Shown one piece after another: positions 30,484 through 62,633 of a stretch of DNA of 64,000 nucleotides. How positions within the stretch are numbered: the first letter of the stretch is position 1; each line of letters begins with the position of its first letter. The translations under genes were made by a program, and so were the position numbers. The DNA is taken from assembly GCA_003402375.1 (NCBI GenBank), contig QFXJ01000053.1:4182-68181 (forward strand). Reading direction: 5' to 3'. This stretch comes from Candidatus Nitrotoga sp. CP45 (GTDB lineage Bacteria > Pseudomonadota > Gammaproteobacteria > Burkholderiales > Gallionellaceae). The notes beneath the pieces are model-generated. The model was not told where the DNA came from, searched no databases, and saw only the letters and a list, made by a program, of their open reading frames with translations.

Positions 30484-31560
30484 TCATTCAGGCTTAGGTG
30501 AAATAAAAGCCTTGTGAAAAAGATGACGTGCAAGAAGAAAGGACGGCATACGCAGCCAGGTTGCGCGTACATACAGTATCTGCCGTGCGGTACCAGTCAA
30601 CCAATCAGAGCAGCTCTTGTGGGCAGGCAGGAGGGCGCGCTCGAAAAGTTGATCTGTAAAAAACAAGGTTAGCGGGTTGGGGCGACCATTTTGAGTGGCT
30701 TTCATCATGCCTGAAGGAACGGGCGTATTCAAAAAATGTACAGCATAGCGCAAGGCGTAAAAAAGTGGTCGCATCAACCCAAGCTCGTGTGCCCGCACGG
30801 ATAAATCTGTCCAAAATGTTGGCAACCTACTGAAATGACGTAACAAACTATCAATATCAACCAAATCCCGCAGCCCCTGATCCAGTTGATCGTTATGGAA
30901 TAAGTGGACAGCACTGTGAAGCACCATATCGACCGGGGCAAATATCTTCACATCATCATAGCCATCAAGTAACTGCGCTGCAGCCAAAAGCTTTGCCGAA
31001 TCAGGGTGAAGCGCTGCTGTTTCCGGCAAAATCGCATGATGCACGTCGATAACGGTCATCCGTTTAATATGCTGCATAGGCGGCAATTCATGCATCCATG
31101 TACGATAGTAACGCTGGTCATAAGCATCGTGATGCGTCGCCGCCCAACCATGAAGCATCAAGGCGGCTTCTACAACACTGAGACTATCTTTAGGCACAAT
31201 AATGTCAATATCAGAGAATAGTCTTCCCTTGGCGGACGGCAGTTTTGCCATTACATAAGCAGCGCCTTTGAGGAGAACGACTGGCACACCTACTTTTTCC
31301 AATGCCTTTCGAATTTGGGTTATTTCCCAATGAACAGCTTGAATATGCTTTTCAGAGATTACGCGTGACCACTCCAGGTGTTGGCGGGGTTTTGGCGGTA
31401 CCTGTTCGAGTAAGCTGCGTTCGTCTAATAAAAGGCAAATACGTGCCAACAGATTCGCGCGGCGTGCTTGGCGTATGAGCAAATCCCAATCTAGCAGACT
31501 TAGGGAAATCAATGCTTCTGGCTCTCGGAGCGCTTGTAATATTAAGTAATTGGGGATCAC
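30484..31560 (-). CDS. Nucleotidyltransferase family protein (NTP_transf_5-like)
   Basis: VVLLKGAAY ... GRLFSDIDIIV, IDVHH motifs. Confidence 0.85.
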   Translation of the reverse strand: MIPNYLILQALREPEALISLSLLDWDLLIRQARRANLLARICLLLDERSLLEQVPPKPRQHLEWSRVISEKHIQAVHWEITQIRKALEKVGVPVVLLKGAAYVMAKLPSAKGRLFSDIDIIVPKDSLSVVEAALMLHGWAATHHDAYDQRYYRTWMHELPPMQHIKRMTVIDVHHAILPETAALHPDSAKLLAAAQLLDGYDDVKIFAPVDMVLHSAVHLFHNDQLDQGLRDLVDIDSLLRHFSRLPTFWTDLSVRAHELGLMRPLFYALRYAVHFLNTPVPSGMMKATQNGRPNPLTLFFTDQLFERALLPAHKSCSDWLTGTARQILYVRATWLRMPSFLLARHLFHKAFISPKPE

Positions 31561-31690
31561 ATTGGGTATTTATGTCAAATATAATGTGATGATTCGTTTT
31601 GCCACCACCCAATTCATCTTCACCAGAACGGGCAGGAATTCGAGTCACTTTCTCTAAAGGGGAGGCTGGGGCAACCTGTTTGTAAATATC

Positions 31691-32635
31691 CTATAATTCA
31701 TTAGCATACGTATGATTATTATGGGAGGCTTGCGGCTTCAGGGCACCAAATATTTCAATGGCATCATCCAATTTGCTGTACGTAAAATCATAACACAGAG
31801 ATGCATCGATCAAATTTGTCATGGCCTTAAAGCCCTGGAGTCCAAGAAGACTGTAATTAAACGAGTTATCAGCAACCCGCATGAAAGCGCGGGATTGAGG
31901 CAGTGTCTCCAAACACGCCGTAGCACCAGCCTGATATTTTGGAAAAATAACCCACGCAAGCTGCACGGCCTCTGCAGCGCGAGCGATACTATCAGCCGGT
32001 GCTTTCATGTGGGCGACCGTGCCTTTTATCGTATCCGCCACCTTACGGCTGAAAATCGCATTGGGTTCATAACGCCTGATGATCTCGATAGATTCGTTTT
32101 TTAAACTAACGGGACGCGGAAGCGGGATAAGTTTCCCATCACTAACACGAATCAACGCAAGCTCATCAGACAGCAATCTCCATCCGCGGTTTACCAAAGC
32201 TGCACATAAAGTGCTTTTACCCGAGCCTGGAGGAGCGGGCATAATCGCGGCAAAACCACCTTTTTCAACTACTGCCGCATGAATCATCAAACAGTGATTA
32301 ACATGGGTTGATACGCACCAATTAAGTCCCCACTCCAACATGGGAAATGCTTGATCTAACGGCAGAGGTTTAAATATGGTGTTTCCGTCAAATAAAAACA
32401 ACGCCTGTGGCTTAAACCATCGCCGTAGGTTACGTGGACGCGTAAGACTAATGTGAAAATCCGCAAAACAATCTTGCTCGACCAAAGGATAATCGGCATA
32501 AAGCAAACCGATACCTTCAGCCACACTGGGAATCGTAGTTTTCAGGTGCGTGGTAAAAGAGCCGGTTTGCAGATATATCCCCGCCGTTTTAAGACGGAGC
32601 TTAAGTTCTGATGGCGTTAATGCAGAAACATTCAA
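31691..32635 (-). CDS. HprK-related kinase A
   Basis: MLEWGLNWC, IHAAVVEK, Walker A APPGSGKST, LLSDE, PRPVSLKN, KGTVAHMK. Confidence 0.88.
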   Translation of the reverse strand: MNVSALTPSELKLRLKTAGIYLQTGSFTTHLKTTIPSVAEGIGLLYADYPLVEQDCFADFHISLTRPRNLRRWFKPQALFLFDGNTIFKPLPLDQAFPMLEWGLNWCVSTHVNHCLMIHAAVVEKGGFAAIMPAPPGSGKSTLCAALVNRGWRLLSDELALIRVSDGKLIPLPRPVSLKNESIEIIRRYEPNAIFSRKVADTIKGTVAHMKAPADSIARAAEAVQLAWVIFPKYQAGATACLETLPQSRAFMRVADNSFNYSLLGLQGFKAMTNLIDASLCYDFTYSKLDDAIEIFGALKPQASHNNHTYANEL

Positions 32636-32637
32636 AA

Positions 32638-32916
32638 TCAGCTAAATTCTATCAGTCCAAGCGTATTAAGCTCATTAAGGAGATGGTCAATTTGGAATGA
32701 AAATTCCTTATCCGTTACATTTTCGGCTTGCAGCCGCCGGGCAAGTGCTTCAGTCAAGAGTAACGCATTTAATGACGATTGCCGTAATTCCAACAGCACC
32801 TGAGCAGCTACCGAACCAAGCAGATGGGTATCTCCCGAAAGATTATTATAAAATACCCATTCATCGTCCCATGAGCAGTAGCTAATTGCCTGACTGGAAG
32901 TTAAGCGCCATTCCAT
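32638..32916 (-). CDS. PqqD-family RiPP recognition element (HPr-rel-A type)
   Basis: WDDEWVFYNNLSGDTHLL..VAAQVL..L ... LLNEL..LGLIE; 92 aa, directly before the kinase. Confidence 0.82.
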   Translation of the reverse strand: MEWRLTSSQAISYCSWDDEWVFYNNLSGDTHLLGSVAAQVLLELRQSSLNALLLTEALARRLQAENVTDKEFSFQIDHLLNELNTLGLIEFS

Positions 32917-32972
32917 TTTTAATTAGCATATTTAAGGGAAAAATAAGACTGGCATAGGGTTATTGCGACAAA

Positions 32973-33746
32973 TCAATTAGCTCCAGTTTGTTTTAAATAA
33001 TCGATAATTTGTGCGGCACTCCAATCTACATTGGCAGTGGGAGAAAAAGCACCACGACTCTGCCACTCATCGAACATCGATTGAATTGTAGCTGGAGGCA
33101 AATAAGGAGTATCTCCATTTCTTGCACGATACAATGCTTTTACAAGATGTTGTAATAACACCTGCGTTTCAGAAGAAGGGAGATCCGGAGGTGCAACTAT
33201 AGTAGTAGGCGTTGGCGACGTATTATTCTTTGAGCCCTTGCCTTTTTGCGTAAGATAATTTGAACCTGATGAATTGCGAGTCCCCATCATGTAGCTCGCA
33301 GCTCCTAATTTACTCTTGGCCACTTGCACTGAAGAATCTACATTTGCAGTCTGAGGCTCTGTCCAAACATTTGCCATTATATCTACGCAACGTCTATTAT
33401 TATAGGACGTATTTGATAGACTTGACATTGGAAACGCCTCTATAAATTTTTCGTCTGGGTTTATGGCAGATTTAAAGCCTGATATGACTGCGGGAGGGCA
33501 AGCACCATGGTGGCTGGTATTGCCTGATACAAATCCAGATGGTGTCGAACAAAAGGCCTCACCCAGTACTGGTCGGCTCGCAAGAGTTAAAATAATCCCT
33601 GATACCGCTAAACCAGACGTCGCAAACTGCCTCCGGGATTCGCCTGAAAACTTTATCTGATCAGCGGCATCATGAGGTAGCTGTTGTTTTTCCAACCCAT
33701 CACTTTTATCCACATTGACGGCCATAATATAATCATCCTTTTTCAT
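32973..33746 (-). CDS. Putative Tat-exported protein heading the kinase/RRE operon
   Basis: Acidic leader, SRRQF twin-Arg, hydrophobic stretch ending LASRPVLG, then CSTPSGFVSGNTS. Start 33746 or 33725. Confidence 0.65.
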   Translation of the reverse strand: MKKDDYIMAVNVDKSDGLEKQQLPHDAADQIKFSGESRRQFATSGLAVSGIILTLASRPVLGEAFCSTPSGFVSGNTSHHGACPPAVISGFKSAINPDEKFIEAFPMSSLSNTSYNNRRCVDIMANVWTEPQTANVDSSVQVAKSKLGAASYMMGTRNSSGSNYLTQKGKGSKNNTSPTPTTIVAPPDLPSSETQVLLQHLVKALYRARNGDTPYLPPATIQSMFDEWQSRGAFSPTANVDWSAAQIIDYLKQTGAN

Positions 33747-33828
33747 GTCGCACCTTGCATTTCGCACACCGTCCTAATTCGATTATCTAGTACCCGGCAA
33801 ATTAATATAGAACACACCATATACATCA

Positions 33829-33845
33829 AGCAAAATACATGCCAA
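33829..33845 (-). promoter_or_regulatory. Sigma54 -24/-12 promoter
   Basis: Minus strand TTGGCATGTATTTTGCT (GG-N10-GC, near consensus). Confidence 0.82.
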
Positions 33846-33939
33846 AACTGGCATGTATTTTAAAGCAATATAATAAACATGGCGCTACACTACCCACACG
33901 CTTGCAATTTCTTACTCTCTTGAATGTTTTAACTAGGAA

Positions 33940-33956
33940 TGTAAAAATTCTCGACA
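33940..33956 (-). promoter_or_regulatory. Candidate PrsR enhancer (TGT-N11-ACA)
   Basis: Minus strand TGTCGAGAATTTTTACA, about 95 bp upstream of the sigma54 site; 13/17 identical to the box at 49088. Confidence 0.72.
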
Positions 33957-34032
33957 TCCTAACCAAGCACTCACGACTCTAAATGAAATAAAGTGAGCGA
34001 TCAATCTTCAACTTCCAGGATAAGAAGTCGAT

Positions 34033-44721: not shown

Positions 44722-47700
44722 TATTCTTTTTCCATGTACCGTGTCGTAAAGAACTCATCCTTAACCCGCTGGTTCGCCTTGAAGTTATCGTATTTAATCA
44801 CCGTACGGTGGCCGGTCTGAACATTGCTTGCTTCAAGGCGCATGGCCTGCCACTTACCACGCGTCTTGTCTACCAGTTGAACATCAGTAAATGTCGAGAT
44901 TTTTAACATCTGCCCTGCCTCATCCCAATACTCCATTTTTATGGCCACCAAATTATCTTTACGCAGCCAGCCGATGCGCTTCGAGTAACCATTACTGGTT
45001 TTAACCGCGTCAGATTTTGGTAATGCCTCGATAACGTAGCAAAGCTGCCCCTCTACCGACTCCTCTTTCAACAGCTTGTAATTCCACTCTCCCACCTTAT
45101 AACCAATCACGTCGGCATAAGAAAAATCCGTGCCCACAAAACTATCTTTTTTATTGTTGGAAACAAGACGCCGCACTTTTTTTAGCGCGGGTAGATAGAT
45201 CCAAATGTCATCATCCTTATCGGCGTGTTCGATCAGCAGCGATACCGTACCTTTTACATCCGGTGGTGACAAAAACCGCGTCATGCGCATGTTATCAATG
45301 CCATTTTCCTCAAGCTTGGTCGCGCCGAAAGTCTTGCGCACCCGTTCCTGACCATTCTTGTTAATCAGGGTAAACGTGGCATCAGCCACTGAATCAGCAA
45401 CCTTGGAAACGACGAAATTTTTTTCCATGATCTGGCCCAGATTGGGTTCCGCCGCCCAGCCATTTTTGGGTTGCATTGATAGACCAAAAACAAGAGCCAA
45501 CACAACAACAGAAACAGGCAATGGGTTATGTTTCACGGCAATTCTCCTGAAAATAAAATCGGGGCGGAATGTAAGAATAAGCGCGGGGATAAGCAACAGC
45601 GCAGATAGCGAACTCATGATCATGGCCTCAGCAATCAAAATGGCCAACCACTTATGGATATTATACCCAAACGATAACAACAACACCCCGTAACCAGCTG
45701 ACACCGAAATCGCAACAAATAGAATAGCTTGCCCCGCTGTTCCAATAACATTTCGGACAGCTGTGATTTCATCGGTTCCCATCATAAGCTCTTCGCGTAA
45801 CCGGTAGATCAGGTAGATTGCGTAATCCGCCCCTATGCCAACGGCCATCGCCGAAATAAGCGAAGTTGAAATATTCAGCGGGATTCCACTCCATCCCATA
45901 AGACCAAAGTTAGCCAAAACAGCAACCAGAAGCGGGAGAAGCACCAGCATTCCTGCTACCAATGAACGGAAAATCAAGCTGGAAATAATAAAAACGACAA
46001 CCGTGATTTGCAGAATATTGAGTATTTTCCCGTAAACCATAACCTCATTCAGTGCTGCACCTTGAGGGACACTGCCACCGATTCCGATATGCACACTTTT
46101 ATCGAAATGCAGCGCTGTGAATGCTTGAATTTTTTCGACCAGCTTTTCTATGTAGGCACTGCTATCTGTCTTCAAGAAAACCGTCAGATTGGCGGAGCGG
46201 TAGCCATAATCAACATAGGAATCAAAATCGCCCGGTTCGCCGGACATTGAGTAAAGCAATAAATATTGTGAAATCAATTCCTGACTGTCTGGAATTTTAT
46301 AATAAGCGGGATCATCCCCGTGCATGGCCTGGTTCATACGCATGATAAAGTCGGCTAGCGAAAGGGTCTTACCGACATAAGGCTGATTTTCAAGAAAACG
46401 TTGCAGCTCCCCTATGGCCCGAAGAGTTTTGGGATCTTTAATGGCGTCGTCACCTGCGCCTTCAACCAGCAAATACATCGTATTAGTACCGCCAAGGCGA
46501 TCATTCAGTGCTTTATCATCTGTTTCAAAAATCAATTCAGGAGAAAAAAAACTCTTGGTAGAGTTATCCACAGTAACCTTCCCCATCCCTATCAGGGTAA
46601 TAATGACGAAAAGCAAAACCCCGCCATACACCCTGCGCCGACTGGTGCCGGTTACCCAGTTCGCTATCGCGTTGGTTACTTTGTCCCAAATCCGTTTTTT
46701 TTGTCCACGCTTTCTTTCAATATCACTTGGTGGAGCAAGTATTGAACGCAAGGCCGGAATAAAAGTCATTTCAAGAATCAATGCCGCAAGAATTCCAATA
46801 CCGGTAAAAATTCCAAAAGTACGCACCGTGCTAATCTTAAAAATTACCAAAGAAAAAAATCCCAAAGAAGCGACCGCTCCGGCAGCAATCATGACCGGCC
46901 CAACGCGGAGAAGAGAGGAAATAACGGCTTGATTATTTGCAACCTTGGGCGAAAGATCCGTTGTTTCTCGTAAGCGGAAATAGTCTTCGTAATAGCGCTT
47001 AAGCAACTGCACCGCATGGCCTGTTGCCACCGCCAGAATCAAAATAGGGGTCGCGGAATTAAACACATCCATTGGAATGCCAGAAGCGCCCATCACGCCG
47101 ACCCCCCAAGCGACAGCCAAACCCGCTGTAACCAATGGCAAAATAAGCCCTTGCTTCGTGCGAAAGGCTTCAAAAAGAACCAGGCTCAAAACTAAAATAG
47201 CGATGGGGAAAAGAAATCCAATACGCTCTGAATAAATTTCAATACGGGCCAGAAAACTCGGAATTCCCCCCACGTTAATTTCAATTCGAGAATCCCGTTC
47301 ATGCTCAACAACAGCCTCCACTTTATCCATGATTGCCCGGAAACCACCCGGCCCGTCCTTAAACTCTACGAGAATAGCTGTTGTTTTCGCATCAGCAGAC
47401 ACAATAGAATTCAAATAAACAGGATTCTTCTCGACTGCCCCTCTTAGTTCAGTAAGTTGCGCGGCCGTAGCTGGAACCTTCGACATTAACGGCTTGACTT
47501 CCAAACCTTCTGCCGTACCGGCAATATTTTTGGCGCGTTTCGAAGAAAGACTCAACAGGTTTTCTTTAACCACACCGGGCGTCTGAAGAAAAGCCGCCGT
47601 CATGCGCTGGATTTTTTCCAAAATCAGAGGCTGATAAATATCACCCTCTTTAGGAGTGACCCCCACCATAACAACATACTTCGACCCAAAAACCTTTTCC

Positions 47701-48086: not shown

Positions 48087-48953
48087 TTATTTGCTGGCCT
48101 TTTCTAGCCGTTTCTTCGCTACAAAGCTTTTCAGCCGTTGCAGCGGATTACGGTTACCCAGCCACAACTGGCGGTGATGAAAACGGTTAAGACGGGCATC
48201 CAGGTAGGTGTACCAAGGCGTCAATTTCAACTCTTGCGGATGCAACAGAACTAACAGCGCTTGGGTGGTAATGAAGCCCGCACACAGCTTGCAACCGGCA
48301 ATTGAGCTGGGGCCCTTGCGCGCCTTCAGGTTGATGGATTGCGGATCCAGATATTTAAGATGGTGCATCTCCGGGGCAAAGCCCAAAGCGAACTGGATGA
48401 TCTTTTCCTCTTCGCTCATTTCTGGGGAAATGGCAAAGTAATCTTCATAAGACATGCCCCCCGGCCCAAATGCCAACACCCCTGCCCCCAACCCCAAAGG
48501 TATCGCCGCCACGGTGAAAAGTCCCCGTGCTGTAGCCGAATTAATCAATAACGGATGCATATCCACCGCAAACACATCCATGCCATCAACGGCCAGATCC
48601 ACACCTGAAAGAAATGCGTCAATATTATTCGCATCAAGGCCTTTGTCGAAAATTTTTACACGTAATTCCGGATTGATTTCCAAAGCATATTCCAGCATTA
48701 CCTCAATCTTGCGGCGGCCCAACGTGCGTGTGTTAGCCCCATACTGTCGGTTGAAATTAGCCAGCTCAAATTCATCAAACTCAGCAATGTGAAATCCACC
48801 CACCCCGGCGCGCACCAAACTAATGAGGTAATCCCCGCCCACACCGCCCATGCCTGCAATAGCTACGGTGGATCGTTGCAGACGCGCATGCTCATCCAAA
48901 CTGACGCAACCCAAGTTGCGGCTGAAAGCGCTGCCATAGTCAAATTCAGTCAT
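48087..48953 (-). CDS. Stand-alone ThiF/E1-family adenylyltransferase
   Basis: AFSRNLG, VAIAGMGGVGG, FDEFELANFNRQ, DLAVDGMD; no nitroreductase domain. Confidence 0.85.
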   Translation of the reverse strand: MTEFDYGSAFSRNLGCVSLDEHARLQRSTVAIAGMGGVGGDYLISLVRAGVGGFHIAEFDEFELANFNRQYGANTRTLGRRKIEVMLEYALEINPELRVKIFDKGLDANNIDAFLSGVDLAVDGMDVFAVDMHPLLINSATARGLFTVAAIPLGLGAGVLAFGPGGMSYEDYFAISPEMSEEEKIIQFALGFAPEMHHLKYLDPQSINLKARKGPSSIAGCKLCAGFITTQALLVLLHPQELKLTPWYTYLDARLNRFHHRQLWLGNRNPLQRLKSFVAKKRLEKASK

Positions 48954-49266: not shown

Positions 49267-50043
49267 ATGAAACTTAATAAAATTGCAGCCACGATGATTT
49301 TAGCATCGCTTGGGTTTACCAGCTTAAATGCTCAAGCTGTGACAGTTGATGGCATTACTTGGGATCCTAATAGCTTTTTCGATTTCAGTTCTACTACTAA
49401 TCTTTTTGAAATTACGAGTGGAACGGCAGGCGCTGAAATTAGTGGTTACGGCATGGTAACTTCTCTTAATTCACTGTTAGGTTTTGCTGCTCCTGGAAGG
49501 GAATTGACTTATCAATTTGGTGGTTTTATCTTAAATGCTGCCACTACTGTCAGCCCTTTTGGAACTGGTATCAACGCAGATGGTAGCTTTTCTTTCACTG
49601 GAGGCTGGCTCAAAGTGTTTTCGGATGCATCAGCAGACTTTAATGCTCTTGTAAAAAGCACTTCTGGAGATGGTACACTTTGGCTCGACATGTTGGCCAA
49701 TACTACAGCACTCTCGCCTAATACCTTGACTGGAACAGTCACCGGACAAAATAGCGTTGGCCTAACCGGTCAAGGTACTGGTTATTTTGATGTTGTCGGT
49801 GGCTCTGCCGCTGTTTATGTAAATACCAATACTCAACCTGGATTATCTGATTTCACATATACATCCTCGTTCCAAGCTCTTAACGCTCCCATTATTAATG
49901 GCGGGGTAGTAGTAGCTAATGCTTTTGGTACGAATGAACTTTACGGTCAATCAGTTAATGTTCCTGAGCCAACCAGTATTGCTCTGCTAGGTTTAGGCTT
50001 GTTGGGTCTAGGTTTTAGTCGCCGCAATAAAAAATCTGCATAA
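49267..50043 (+). CDS. PEP-CTERM sorting-domain protein (possibly PepA-like)
   Basis: Signal peptide, G/T/S-rich body, C-terminal VPEPTSIALLGLGLLGLGFSRRNKK. Confidence 0.96.
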   Translation: MKLNKIAATMILASLGFTSLNAQAVTVDGITWDPNSFFDFSSTTNLFEITSGTAGAEISGYGMVTSLNSLLGFAAPGRELTYQFGGFILNAATTVSPFGTGINADGSFSFTGGWLKVFSDASADFNALVKSTSGDGTLWLDMLANTTALSPNTLTGTVTGQNSVGLTGQGTGYFDVVGGSAAVYVNTNTQPGLSDFTYTSSFQALNAPIINGGVVVANAFGTNELYGQSVNVPEPTSIALLGLGLLGLGFSRRNKKSA

Positions 50044-61285: not shown

Positions 61286-62633
61286 AAAAAAGCTACTTGT
61301 GATTGAAGATGATCTAGGCTTGCAAAAGCAATTGCGCTGGAATTTTGATGCTTATGAAGTGCTGTTGGCGGGAGACCGTGAAAGCGCGCTGGCGCAGGTT
61401 AGACGGCATGAACCTGCGGTTATTACCATGGATCTTGGACTTCCTCCTGATCCCGATGGTGCTACGGAAGGACTGGCAATCCTACAACAGATTCTTGCGC
61501 TTGCCCCTGACACCAAACTAATTGTGCTTTCAGGGAATCAAGATCATGCCAATGCAGTGAAAGCGATTGGTATGGGTGCTTATGATTTTCATCAGAAACC
61601 GTTTAACCCGGAGATACTAGGGTTAGTAGTTGAACGTGCATTTTATTTACACGCGCTGCAACAGGAAAACCGCAGAATTTTACAGATTCAGGCTGACTCT
61701 CCCTTATCTAGTATTATCAGTCGGGATCCCGGCATGTTGAAGGTGTGCCGTAGCGTTGAAAAAGTAGCTCCCTCCTCCGCCTCGGTCATGCTGTTAGGTG
61801 ATAGCGGAACGGGTAAAGAACTATTGGCAAGAGCGCTGCACCAGATGAGCCCGCGGCAGGAGCGGCGCTTCATGGCAATCAACTGCGCCGCAATCCCGGA
61901 AAACCTTCTGGAAAGCGAATTGTTTGGCTACGAGAAGGGAGCGTTTACCGGAGCCGCCAAACAGACATTAGGTAAAATTGAACTTGCCGATGGGGGTACT
62001 TTTTTTCTTGATGAAGTCGGGGATATGCCCATGCTTCTACAAGCGAAACTTCTCCGATTTTTGCAAGAAAGGGTAATCGAGAGAATAGGAGGACGCCAGG
62101 AAATTCCTGTTGATGTTCGAATTGTCTGCGCAACGCATCGTAATCTGAAGGAACTCAGCGTTGCGGGACGTTTCCGTGAGGACCTTTATTACCGGTTAAG
62201 CGAGATTACAGTCACTATCCCCCCGCTACGGGAACGTGTGGGCGACGCCGCATTGTTGGCACACCATTTTAAAAATAAATTCAGCATTAAAGAGGGGCGT
62301 TCTTCACTAAACTTCACTCAGGAAGCGCTGGCCATGATAGAGGGATACTCTTGGCCAGGCAATGTGCGCGAAATGGAAAACTGCATCAAGCGTGCCGTAA
62401 TCATGGCTGAAGGCTCCCAAATAAGCGCAGAAGATATTGGTCTGTCGACTTCACCCAAAATGATAGAGTCTATCAATTTGCGCCAGGTACGTGATGACGC
62501 CGAATACAACGCCGTGGTAAAAGCGCTGGCGAGAGTAAATGGCAATATTGCCAAGGCGGCCGAATTGCTCGGTGTTAGCCGTCCAACACTCTACGATTTA
62601 ATAAGCCGTCATGGTATTGTATGCAAAGCTTAA
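61272..62633 (+). CDS. prsR: PEP-CTERM-box sigma54-dependent response regulator PrsR
   Basis: Receiver MDLGLPPDPD, GDSGTGKE, ESELFGYEKGAFTGA, WPGNVRE, Fis HTH. Confidence 0.95.
   Translation: MNPDKKKLLVIEDDLGLQKQLRWNFDAYEVLLAGDRESALAQVRRHEPAVITMDLGLPPDPDGATEGLAILQQILALAPDTKLIVLSGNQDHANAVKAIGMGAYDFHQKPFNPEILGLVVERAFYLHALQQENRRILQIQADSPLSSIISRDPGMLKVCRSVEKVAPSSASVMLLGDSGTGKELLARALHQMSPRQERRFMAINCAAIPENLLESELFGYEKGAFTGAAKQTLGKIELADGGTFFLDEVGDMPMLLQAKLLRFLQERVIERIGGRQEIPVDVRIVCATHRNLKELSVAGRFREDLYYRLSEITVTIPPLRERVGDAALLAHHFKNKFSIKEGRSSLNFTQEALAMIEGYSWPGNVREMENCIKRAVIMAEGSQISAEDIGLSTSPKMIESINLRQVRDDAEYNAVVKALARVNGNIAKAAELLGVSRPTLYDLISRHGIVCKA

Follow-up and report, generated by a model that had tools for sequence, protein, structure and literature searches.

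The HPr-rel-A system, catalogued in the databases as a kinase family (TIGR04352) and a family of PqqD-type proteins (TIGR04353), has been present there for over a decade with neither a substrate nor a function, and the question raised by the locus described here is what these proteins act upon. The locus is a group of five co-directional genes between positions 33957 and 29590, on the minus strand, of a 64 000 nt stretch of DNA from Candidatus Nitrotoga sp. CP45 (assembly GCA_003402375.1, contig QFXJ01000053.1, positions 4,182 to 68,181), which we refer to as the window. These genes encode, in order, a protein with a putative twin-arginine translocation (Tat) signal that we call X, a PqqD-family protein, an HprK-related kinase A, a nucleotidyltransferase (NTase) and a GAF-domain protein. 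X is obligately linked to the enzymes, and it is very probably the substrate that the HPr-rel-A system has so far lacked.

Linkage of X to the HPr-rel-A enzymes

A sequence-only reading of this stretch had described an operon of a Tat-signal protein, a RiPP (a peptide made on the ribosome and modified after translation) recognition element (RRE), a kinase and an NTase, and this order stands, with the families confirmed; no lasso cyclase (macrolactam synthetase), B2 or other peptidase or radical SAM protein is encoded in the operon or in the flanking genes, as had also been claimed. The assignment of the RRE and kinase to HPr-rel-A is borne out as well, both exceeding the curated cut-offs: the PqqD protein scores 50.3 bits with TIGR04353 (cut-off 35) over the full model, and the kinase 405.2 bits with TIGR04352 (cut-off 200) over model positions 2–279 of 280. 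The two are thus full-length and adjacent members of families whose entries are catalogued only, and our search of the literature on TIGR04352, TIGR04353, HPr-rel-A and the NTase family PF14907 found nothing relevant. X is likely to begin at the ATG at 33746 and not at the GTG at 33767 listed with its open reading frame (ORF), because the close homologues measure 256–257 aa; residue numbers (C66, S70 and S74) are counted from this ATG.

The association of X with the enzymes was analysed in a sample of 401 genomes across the class, together with 41 relatives, and the TIGR04352 kinase is present in 31 and 17 of these respectively. Comparison of 13 kb stretches around 30 kinases, which represent 23 non-redundant loci from different families, showed that the kinase adjoins the NTase in all 30, and that a twin-arginine protein is encoded immediately upstream of the PqqD gene at 22 of the 23 non-redundant loci; at the exception (L043) the kinase and NTase are present and neither X nor PqqD is detectable. 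X proteins belong to two sequence types, described below, and full-length type 1 X was found in 23 of the 401 genomes, all of them positive for kinase A and each with one copy, whereas the kinase-negative genomes of this sample contain none. In 22 of the 23, X and the kinase share a contig and are no more than ~1.5 kb apart; in the other (G399), whose assembly is fragmented, they are found on separate contigs. Eight kinase-positive genomes are without type 1 X, and the six of these that were fetched all carry type 2. This combination of perfect single-copy co-occurrence and adjacency is as tight as genomics allows, and it marks X as the partner of the enzymes. The earlier reading had proposed conservation of the first gene upstream of homologous operons as a check on its interpretation, and the outcome, at 22 of 23 loci and throughout the 401 genomes, is in its favour.

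The PqqD stop codon abuts the kinase start, and 56 nt separate X from the PqqD gene. The spacer between the kinase and NTase genes (31561–31690) is unusually long in Nitrotoga, at 130 nt in the window and up to 334 nt in other species, compared with 18–60 nt outside the genus; in the 130 nt gap we recognized no ORF, and nothing there makes a convincing promoter or terminator. The idea that a small precursor ORF is hidden between the genes was considered and rejected, since outside Nitrotoga the gaps leave too little room for one. The GAF gene is an accessory to this arrangement, found 3′ of the NTase gene at all Nitrotoga loci and outside the genus solely at L031, where it is upstream of X, and it may encode a lineage-specific sensor added to the operon; the C-terminal 80 residues of the protein are uncharacterized. 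The operon is flanked by Fnr upstream and by a YebC paralogue downstream, beside the GAF protein.

Two further observations concern the related loci. At L041 (G037:C6) frameshifts break up X as well as the NTase, each of which appears as two ORFs or two high-scoring segment pairs; the copy is decaying or the assembly is in error. Nine distant loci (L025, L027, L029–L033, L038 and L039) encode a trypsin-like S1 serine protease (~260 aa, DegP-like without a PDZ domain) within the 13 kb neighbourhood of the X operon, and its Nitrotoga homologue, with 53 % identity, is located on another contig of the genome to which the window belongs (C46:43958–44647); it could be a gene of PEP-CTERM loci or a processing enzyme.

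Sequence features of X and its putative modifying enzymes

X consists of an acidic N-region, a twin-arginine signal (SRRQF...TLASRPVLG) and the segment C66-x3-S70-x3-S74-G-N-x-S, after which come an insert of low complexity and, at the C-terminus, a helical domain. The motif that the sequence-only reading had placed right after the signal, EAFCSTPSGFVSGNTS, does directly follow SRRQFATSGLAVSGIILTLASRPVLG, so that the protein reads ...FSGESRRQFATSGLAVSGIILTLASRPVLGEAFCSTPSGFVSGNTSHHGAC... across the end of the signal-like segment, and the peptide spanning the S70/S74 region is CSTPSGFVSGNTS. Scans of X and 29 relatives against Pfam and NCBIfam gave no match for any of the 30, although the family is large: a type 1 profile retrieved 3332 clusters (50 % identity) at E≤1e-10 among 1.84 billion representatives. 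We aligned 134 of these cluster representatives from the twin arginine onward. The RR pair is invariant or near-invariant across the family, the leader consensus is RRRF.K.GLA..APVLLTLASRP, and the equivalents of S70 and S74 are both present in 132 of 133 aligned representatives, 5–10 residues past an (A/V)-x-(G/A) sequence in keeping with the −3/−1 rule of signal peptidase I. Less uniform are a third serine (117/134), the cysteine preceding the serines (117/134), a second cysteine (111/134) and, within the signal, the threonine (116/134), serine (113/134) and proline (107/134) of TL.SRP. Conservation of SG..SGN.S in homologues, another check put forward with the earlier reading, is thus seen as a near-invariant S..S(GN.S).

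Type 1 X proteins (17 loci, including the window) have the signal RRRF.K.GLA..APV(L/I)(L/M)TLASRP..G followed by C-x-(T/S)-x-S-G-x-x-S-G-N-x-S, and farther downstream a second cysteine with G.SPGYW and a C-terminal H.VAA.LNA domain. Type 2 proteins (six loci, at which the NTase is mostly divergent) have RR.FLKGTSLALPAVMTLHSGTA.A, then.TS(I/L)(T/G)CG, with TS..G.C(M/L).SL near the C-terminus, and one example is just 74 aa long. Sizes range from 74 to ~270 aa over the two types, and the twin-arginine leader and a Ser/Cys motif are always kept. In an AlphaFold2 (AF2) model of X the serine segment is disordered, with a confident fold only in the C-terminal 70 residues and partly in residues 95–130, and a search of the PDB with this model gave no match at E≤0.001. 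The mature domain (SPGYW...AA.LNA) is also found without a twin-arginine leader inside large proteins, such as P0084 (808 aa) and P0218 (761 aa), and likewise in genomes G202, G216, G378 and G158, once as six tandem copies. Pfam scans of these multi-domain relatives gave no functional clue. From its leaderless occurrence the mature domain is an autonomous module, and the leader and serine motif are the part specific to this system.

The signal of X has the sequence S-R-R-Q-F, a 15-residue mildly hydrophobic h-region rich in G, S and T, a basic residue in the c-region, and then SRPVLG. A basic residue in the c-region is a classical feature for avoidance of the Sec pathway. Tat signals are recognized by an S/T-R-R-x-F-L-K motif, a mildly hydrophobic h-region, a basic c-region and an A-x-A-type site; the features of the N-terminus fit this pattern, and Tat export of X is likely; TatC is encoded in the genome (TIGR00945, 225.6 bits, contig C18). 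Among type 2 relatives, TIGR01409 scores 19.1 bits at L038 (cut-off 16.7) and 12.9 bits on another.

The claim that the small protein is an RRE is confirmed at the level of a model. An AF2 model of the PqqD protein built from 18 homologues (pLDDT 90.9) has the three-stranded sheet and three helices of the RRE fold, and in the PDB it comes closest to two lasso RREs crystallized with their leader peptides, TbiB1 (5V1V) and TfuB1 (6JX3) (TM 0.76–0.79), followed by the RREs of ThcOx, TigE, CteB, LynD and McbB; a sequence profile of the family likewise picks up TbiB1 (E=3.5e-4) and TfuB1 (E=9e-4). By its predicted fold, then, the PqqD protein is a bona fide RRE, and it would bind the leader of X. 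Many X relatives have Phi-x-x-P-x-(I/L/V) in the h-region, which resembles the [Y/W]xxPx[L/V/I/F/A] bound by lasso and linear polyphosphorylated peptide (LPP) RREs, and we regard this as a lead to the place of binding and nothing more.

Both enzymes appear catalytically intact as judged from conserved motifs, which is in favour of the earlier reading. The kinase has a P-loop (G137-x-G-K-S-T) followed by W152-R-L-x-S-D-E, at least 95 % conserved in 24 homologues, and the P-loop region aligns weakly with the GxGKS...RLxADD of HPr kinase/phosphorylase structures. The NTase has the motifs K98-G, D117-x-D119 and D172-x-H-H, at least 95 % conserved in 23 homologues, as expected of an active Pol-beta-type nucleotidyltransferase. 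Sequence searches against PDB chains with the kinase, the NTase and the PqqD protein gave marginal HprK P-loop matches only, and no match for the NTase.

Promoter and transcription of the operon

A regulatory site upstream of proteobacterial PEP-CTERM genes has been described in which a 17 nt motif 1, with TTTACA at its end, is separated from a sigma-54 motif by 62.8±10.6 nt (at most 92); it was linked to PrsK, PrsR and PrsT, and a few such sites were noted before non-PEP-CTERM genes (Haft et al., BMC Biol 2006; PMC1569441). The X operon has the same arrangement, with TGTCGAGAATTTTTACA located 95–96 nt upstream of the sigma-54 site TGGCATGTATTTTGCT and with PrsR encoded in the window. It departs from the published description in that X has no PEP-CTERM tail and in that the window spacer is slightly past the published maximum. 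In other genomes the X operon spacers are 61–82 nt. The sigma-54 site and TGT-N11-ACA box pointed out in the sequence-only reading are both where it had placed them, and the promoter that it called PEP-CTERM-type proves to have the published PrsR/sigma-54 architecture, common to the PEP-CTERM genes of the genome. The box has four matches in the window against 0.38 expected, and both motif 1 and the sigma-54 site are invariant in eight Nitrotoga species, in a spacer that otherwise varies.

The whole Nitrotoga genome contains eight pairs of motif 1 and sigma-54 sites, with spacers of 62–64 or 94–96 nt. They precede genes for five PEP-CTERM proteins, X and one secreted protein of 309 aa, the eighth pair being doubtful. 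All six credible PEP-CTERM genes of the genome have a sigma-54 site, five of the six also have motif 1, and two have the 95–96 nt spacing seen at X. PrsR itself (G000:C54:65474-66799; 742.7 bits with TIGR02915, cut-off 502.6) is encoded 27 kb from the operon. The association extends to distant loci, since a sigma-54-like site is present within 300 nt upstream of X at 18 of 22 of these, compared with 5.4 % of control windows (binomial p ~1e-19), and TGTC(G/A)-N7-TTTACA occurs 61–96 nt upstream of the sigma-54 site at 13 of the 22, compared with 1 % of control windows. PrsR is above the cut-off in 30 of 31 kinase-A genomes, the exception being a genome that is 75 % complete, versus 99 of 400 overall. 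The operon is presumably switched on together with the PEP-CTERM (biofilm) proteins. The C-terminus of X (...IIDYLKQTGAN) does not show the PEP motif, transmembrane helix and basic tail that define PEP-CTERM proteins; X is co-regulated with these proteins but is not one itself.

Several other sites of this kind were noted. On contig C46, outside the window, a pair with a 94 nt spacer (site 127938, minus strand) precedes the gene for the 309-aa protein, which has a Sec signal and no PEP-CTERM tail and is presumably another non-PEP-CTERM member of the PrsR regulon. In the PEP-CTERM/lipid cluster there are two further motif-1-like boxes on the plus strand, at 48643–48660 and 44891–44908 (one and two mismatches), neither with a sigma-54 site at the usual distance. 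The former lies ~440 nt upstream of the box serving the PEP-CTERM gene at 49267 and may represent an enhancer repeat such as Haft et al. mention (2006; PMC1569441). The sigma-54 site of the X operon is located inside a perfect palindrome, AAATACATGCCA-gttt-TGGCATGTATTT (33822–33851, minus strand), which we rejected as a functional element because its left arm is missing from six of the eight Nitrotoga species, leaving the palindrome to the window and its closest relative (L049) alone.

Several wastewater and bioreactor metatranscriptomes contain parts of the X gene as it occurs in related strains. A 1160 nt RNA contig, ~92 % identical to the window, spans 33806 to 32651 and contains all of X and nearly all of the PqqD gene, so these two genes are transcribed on one RNA. 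The −12 element predicts a +1 that is 12 nt above the 5′ end of this contig, and no RNA contigs extend upstream of 33806. X is covered in four of four metatranscriptome runs and the kinase in none of the four, with RNA pieces also mapping to the GAF gene, but the data are assembled contigs and the evidence on relative levels is accordingly weak.

Table 1. Genes and regulatory sites of the X operon, with the presumed regulator; coordinates are those of the window
Feature	Coordinates	Strand	Basis or remark
X, precursor/candidate substrate protein, 257 aa	32973..33746	-	Matches no Pfam/NCBIfam model
PqqD-family RRE (HPr-rel-A system peptide chaperone), 92 aa	32638..32916	-	TIGR04353
HprK-related kinase A, 314 aa	31691..32635	-	TIGR04352
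NTP_transf_5 nucleotidyltransferase, 358 aa	30484..31560	-	PF14907, 191 bits
GAF-domain protein, 273 aa	29590..30411	-	Pfam GAF; accessory, not a core gene
PrsR, PEP-CTERM-box sigma-54 response regulator, presumed operon activator	61293..62618	+	TIGR02915
Enhancer, PEP-CTERM motif 1, presumed PrsR site, TGTCGAGAATTTTTACA	33941..33957	-	Fits motif of Haft et al. (2006)
Sigma-54 (-24/-12) promoter, TGGCATGTATTTTGCT	33829..33844	-	Exact TGGCAY-N5-TTGCW match; predicted +1 ~33818

Proposed modification of X and its alternatives

The explanation that on balance we favour is that X undergoes RRE-guided serine phosphorylation and decoration by the NTase before Tat export, with co-induction alongside PEP-CTERM proteins. 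The interpretation offered with the sequence-only reading is supported as far as computation reaches, its computationally testable elements all coming out in its favour. X would be the dedicated substrate of the HPr-rel-A system, and the PqqD-type RRE would bind the N-terminal leader of cytoplasmic X, a leader that doubles as the twin-arginine export signal, and offer the disordered segment behind the signal to kinase A. The kinase would then phosphorylate, or perhaps polyphosphorylate, S70 and/or S74, and the NTP_transf_5 enzyme would put a nucleotide or sugar-phosphate onto the phosphoserine. The modified protein would exit by Tat with its signal cut after ...RPVLG, and would end up in the periplasm or the matrix bearing a decorated N-terminus. 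Transcription would be driven by sigma-54 and PrsK/PrsR, so that X would be made with the PEP-CTERM proteins of an exopolysaccharide/floc programme. The binding of the leader by the RRE, the chemistry (the phosphorylation and the group added by the NTase), the identity of the target residue, Tat export and the role of X in an exopolysaccharide matrix are the parts of this scheme that we infer.

The closest studied system is that of the LPPs of Bacillota, specified by LppA, LppB, LppK, LppN, LppS and LppD (Popov et al., Nat Commun 2026; PMC13381572), and this precedent strengthens the proposed mechanism. In LPP clusters LppB is a discrete RRE, LppK the HprK-like kinase and LppN an NTP transferase, while LppS is a leader peptidase resembling signal peptidase I (SpI) and LppD an MsbA-like exporter; LppK adds up to four phosphates to core Ser3, directly past the leader, the precursors are 35–200 aa long, and the clusters, described as restricted to Bacillota, lie within capsular polysaccharide loci (PMC13381572). 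The X operon resembles these in its discrete RRE, HprK-like kinase and NTP transferase, in a linear precursor without a lasso cyclase, in a candidate target serine located a few residues past a predicted cut of the signal peptidase I type, and in its polysaccharide/biofilm context. It differs in having no dedicated SpI-like peptidase or MsbA-like exporter among its five genes, and neither was seen in the 30 related loci, which are not exhaustively annotated. Its leader is SRRQFATSGLAVSGIILTLASRPVLG and not the YxxPxVLxHQxIxFETxxS of LPPs (PMC13381572), and further differences are the betaproteobacterial host, the twin-arginine leader, the conserved folded mature domain and expression by PrsR and sigma-54. 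Given the twin-arginine leader, the tasks of the LPP exporter and of LppS would fall to Tat and to the housekeeping signal peptidase. Since the peptidase, the exporter and the leader of LPP systems all fail to match, we classify the operon as a member of HPr-rel-A that would work like an LPP system, and by this analogy it appears to be a proteobacterial variant with a twin-arginine leader, a full-size protein as substrate and PrsR/sigma-54 control.

The phosphorylated lasso peptides offer a second comparison. For paeninodin (PadeK) and pseudomycoidin (PsmK and PsmN) an HprK-like kinase (poly)phosphorylates a precursor serine, and an NTase homologue and a B1-type RRE are also involved; corresponding families are encoded here, and PsmN adds a hexose to the phosphoserine (PMC9266682). 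Unlike those clusters, the Nitrotoga operon has no macrolactam synthetase or B2 peptidase, the candidate serines of X are near the mature N-terminus whereas the lasso target is C-terminal, and the product would be a protein and not a peptide of ~20 aa.

A number of points weigh against the proposed modification. All of its steps rest on computation, and the kinase and NTase are likened to LppK, LppN and PsmN by description; the similarity of the kinase to solved HPr kinases is marginal (E ~0.2) and no lasso-peptide kinase surfaced, while LppN had no detectable activity in a heterologous host in the only study of it (PMC13381572). As to X itself, TIGR01409 reports no match on the N-terminus of the window protein, which also has a glycine in place of the proline of the PhixxPxPhi leader motif, and the second Cys/SPGYW motif, present in most of the family, has been lost in the clade of the window. 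It could also be that the kinase system in truth targets the conserved threonine and serine within the signal (TLAS). For the RNA, the evidence is of assembled contigs, and these derive from related strains (~92 % identity) and not from this one.

A more specific version of the mechanism, which is possible but which we put forward tentatively, is that the Tat signal doubles as a RiPP-style leader, with the RRE reading the h-region and masking the signal from TatBC while the serines are decorated, and with release of the RRE licensing export. The kinase and NTase would in this case build a phospho- or phosphoglycosyl adduct on folded, full-size X in the cytoplasm, Tat and LepB would stand in for the exporter and leader peptidase of the LPP and lasso systems as a Gram-negative solution, and the decorated N-terminus could link X covalently or ionically to the exopolysaccharide laid down with the PEP-CTERM/exosortase proteins. 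The Tat signal chaperones (redox enzyme maturation proteins such as TorD, DmsD and NapD) are small cytoplasmic proteins that bind a twin-arginine signal until maturation is complete. By analogy only, the PqqD protein would likewise be a small cytoplasmic protein holding X by its twin-arginine signal, although its predicted fold, the PqqD/RRE winged helix, is unrelated to theirs and the maturation would be serine decoration in place of cofactor insertion.

The main rival departs from this at the fate of the mark: the operon would be an export checkpoint acting on the signal or the segment adjoining it, in which PqqD serves as a Tat signal chaperone in the manner of TorD or DmsD, and a kinase mark, perhaps reversible, times or gates the export of X, is taken off or goes with the signal, and is absent from the final product. 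The unusually high conservation within the signal (the T, S and P of T-L-x-S-R-P) is in keeping with this, as is the RRE being the only component that clearly recognizes peptides. The HprK family has bifunctional kinase/phosphorylase members, which would suit a reversible mark, but the alignment of the present kinase to them is weak. We nevertheless consider a checkpoint unlikely, since the two most invariant residues of the family, the serines found in 132 of 133 representatives, lie past the predicted cleavage site and not in the signal, an NTase that is always present is hard to account for by gating alone, and the phosphoserine of LPPs remains on the released core (PMC13381572).

It is more improbable still that X is merely a co-regulated secreted neighbour, and that the enzymes act on something else, for instance on PEP-CTERM proteins, on a polysaccharide precursor or on some small peptide that is not annotated. 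The link between enzymes and substrate is indirect, the operon belongs to the PEP-CTERM regulon, and L043 has kinase and NTase genes with no detectable X or PqqD, all of which such a reading would accommodate. It does not fit easily with the single-copy co-occurrence in the 401-genome sample and an adjacency broken in one fragmented genome, or with the precursor pattern of X, whose leader and Ser/Cys motif persist across its range of sizes and both of its types; nor is there another conserved small ORF that fits, the X–PqqD gap and the kinase–NTase gaps outside Nitrotoga being as short as they are. A third alternative, in which the NTase or kinase activates Cys66 for a thio-linked group or lipid-like anchor and X is a Tat-exported, lipoprotein-like protein, draws on the cysteine just before the serines, on the second cysteine, and on the retention of Ser and Cys beside the signal in type 2 proteins, but is very hard to sustain given that these cysteines are less conserved than the serines, that the two, ~15 residues apart, are more simply explained by a periplasmic disulfide, that the HprK-type kinases studied so far phosphorylate serine, and that the residues before the first cysteine (F, R, K, N, V, H) do not suit a lipobox, for which reason we also rejected a lipoprotein reading of X.

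What is new here is that HPr-rel-A is linked with the X family and with the PrsR promoter, there being no NCBIfam or Pfam model for a substrate. The tie to one large unmodelled family, with thousands of clusters, makes the HPr-rel-A system directly testable. If the modification of X by serine phosphorylation and NTase decoration is correct, RRE-guided phosphorylation, so far seen with Bacillota peptides only, would extend to full-size proteins of Proteobacteria, and there would be a route for coupling cytoplasmic post-translational modification to Tat export. X would also be a new, chemically decorated component of the PrsR/sigma-54 floc and biofilm programme, which is of relevance to activated-sludge and biofilter organisms such as Nitrotoga.

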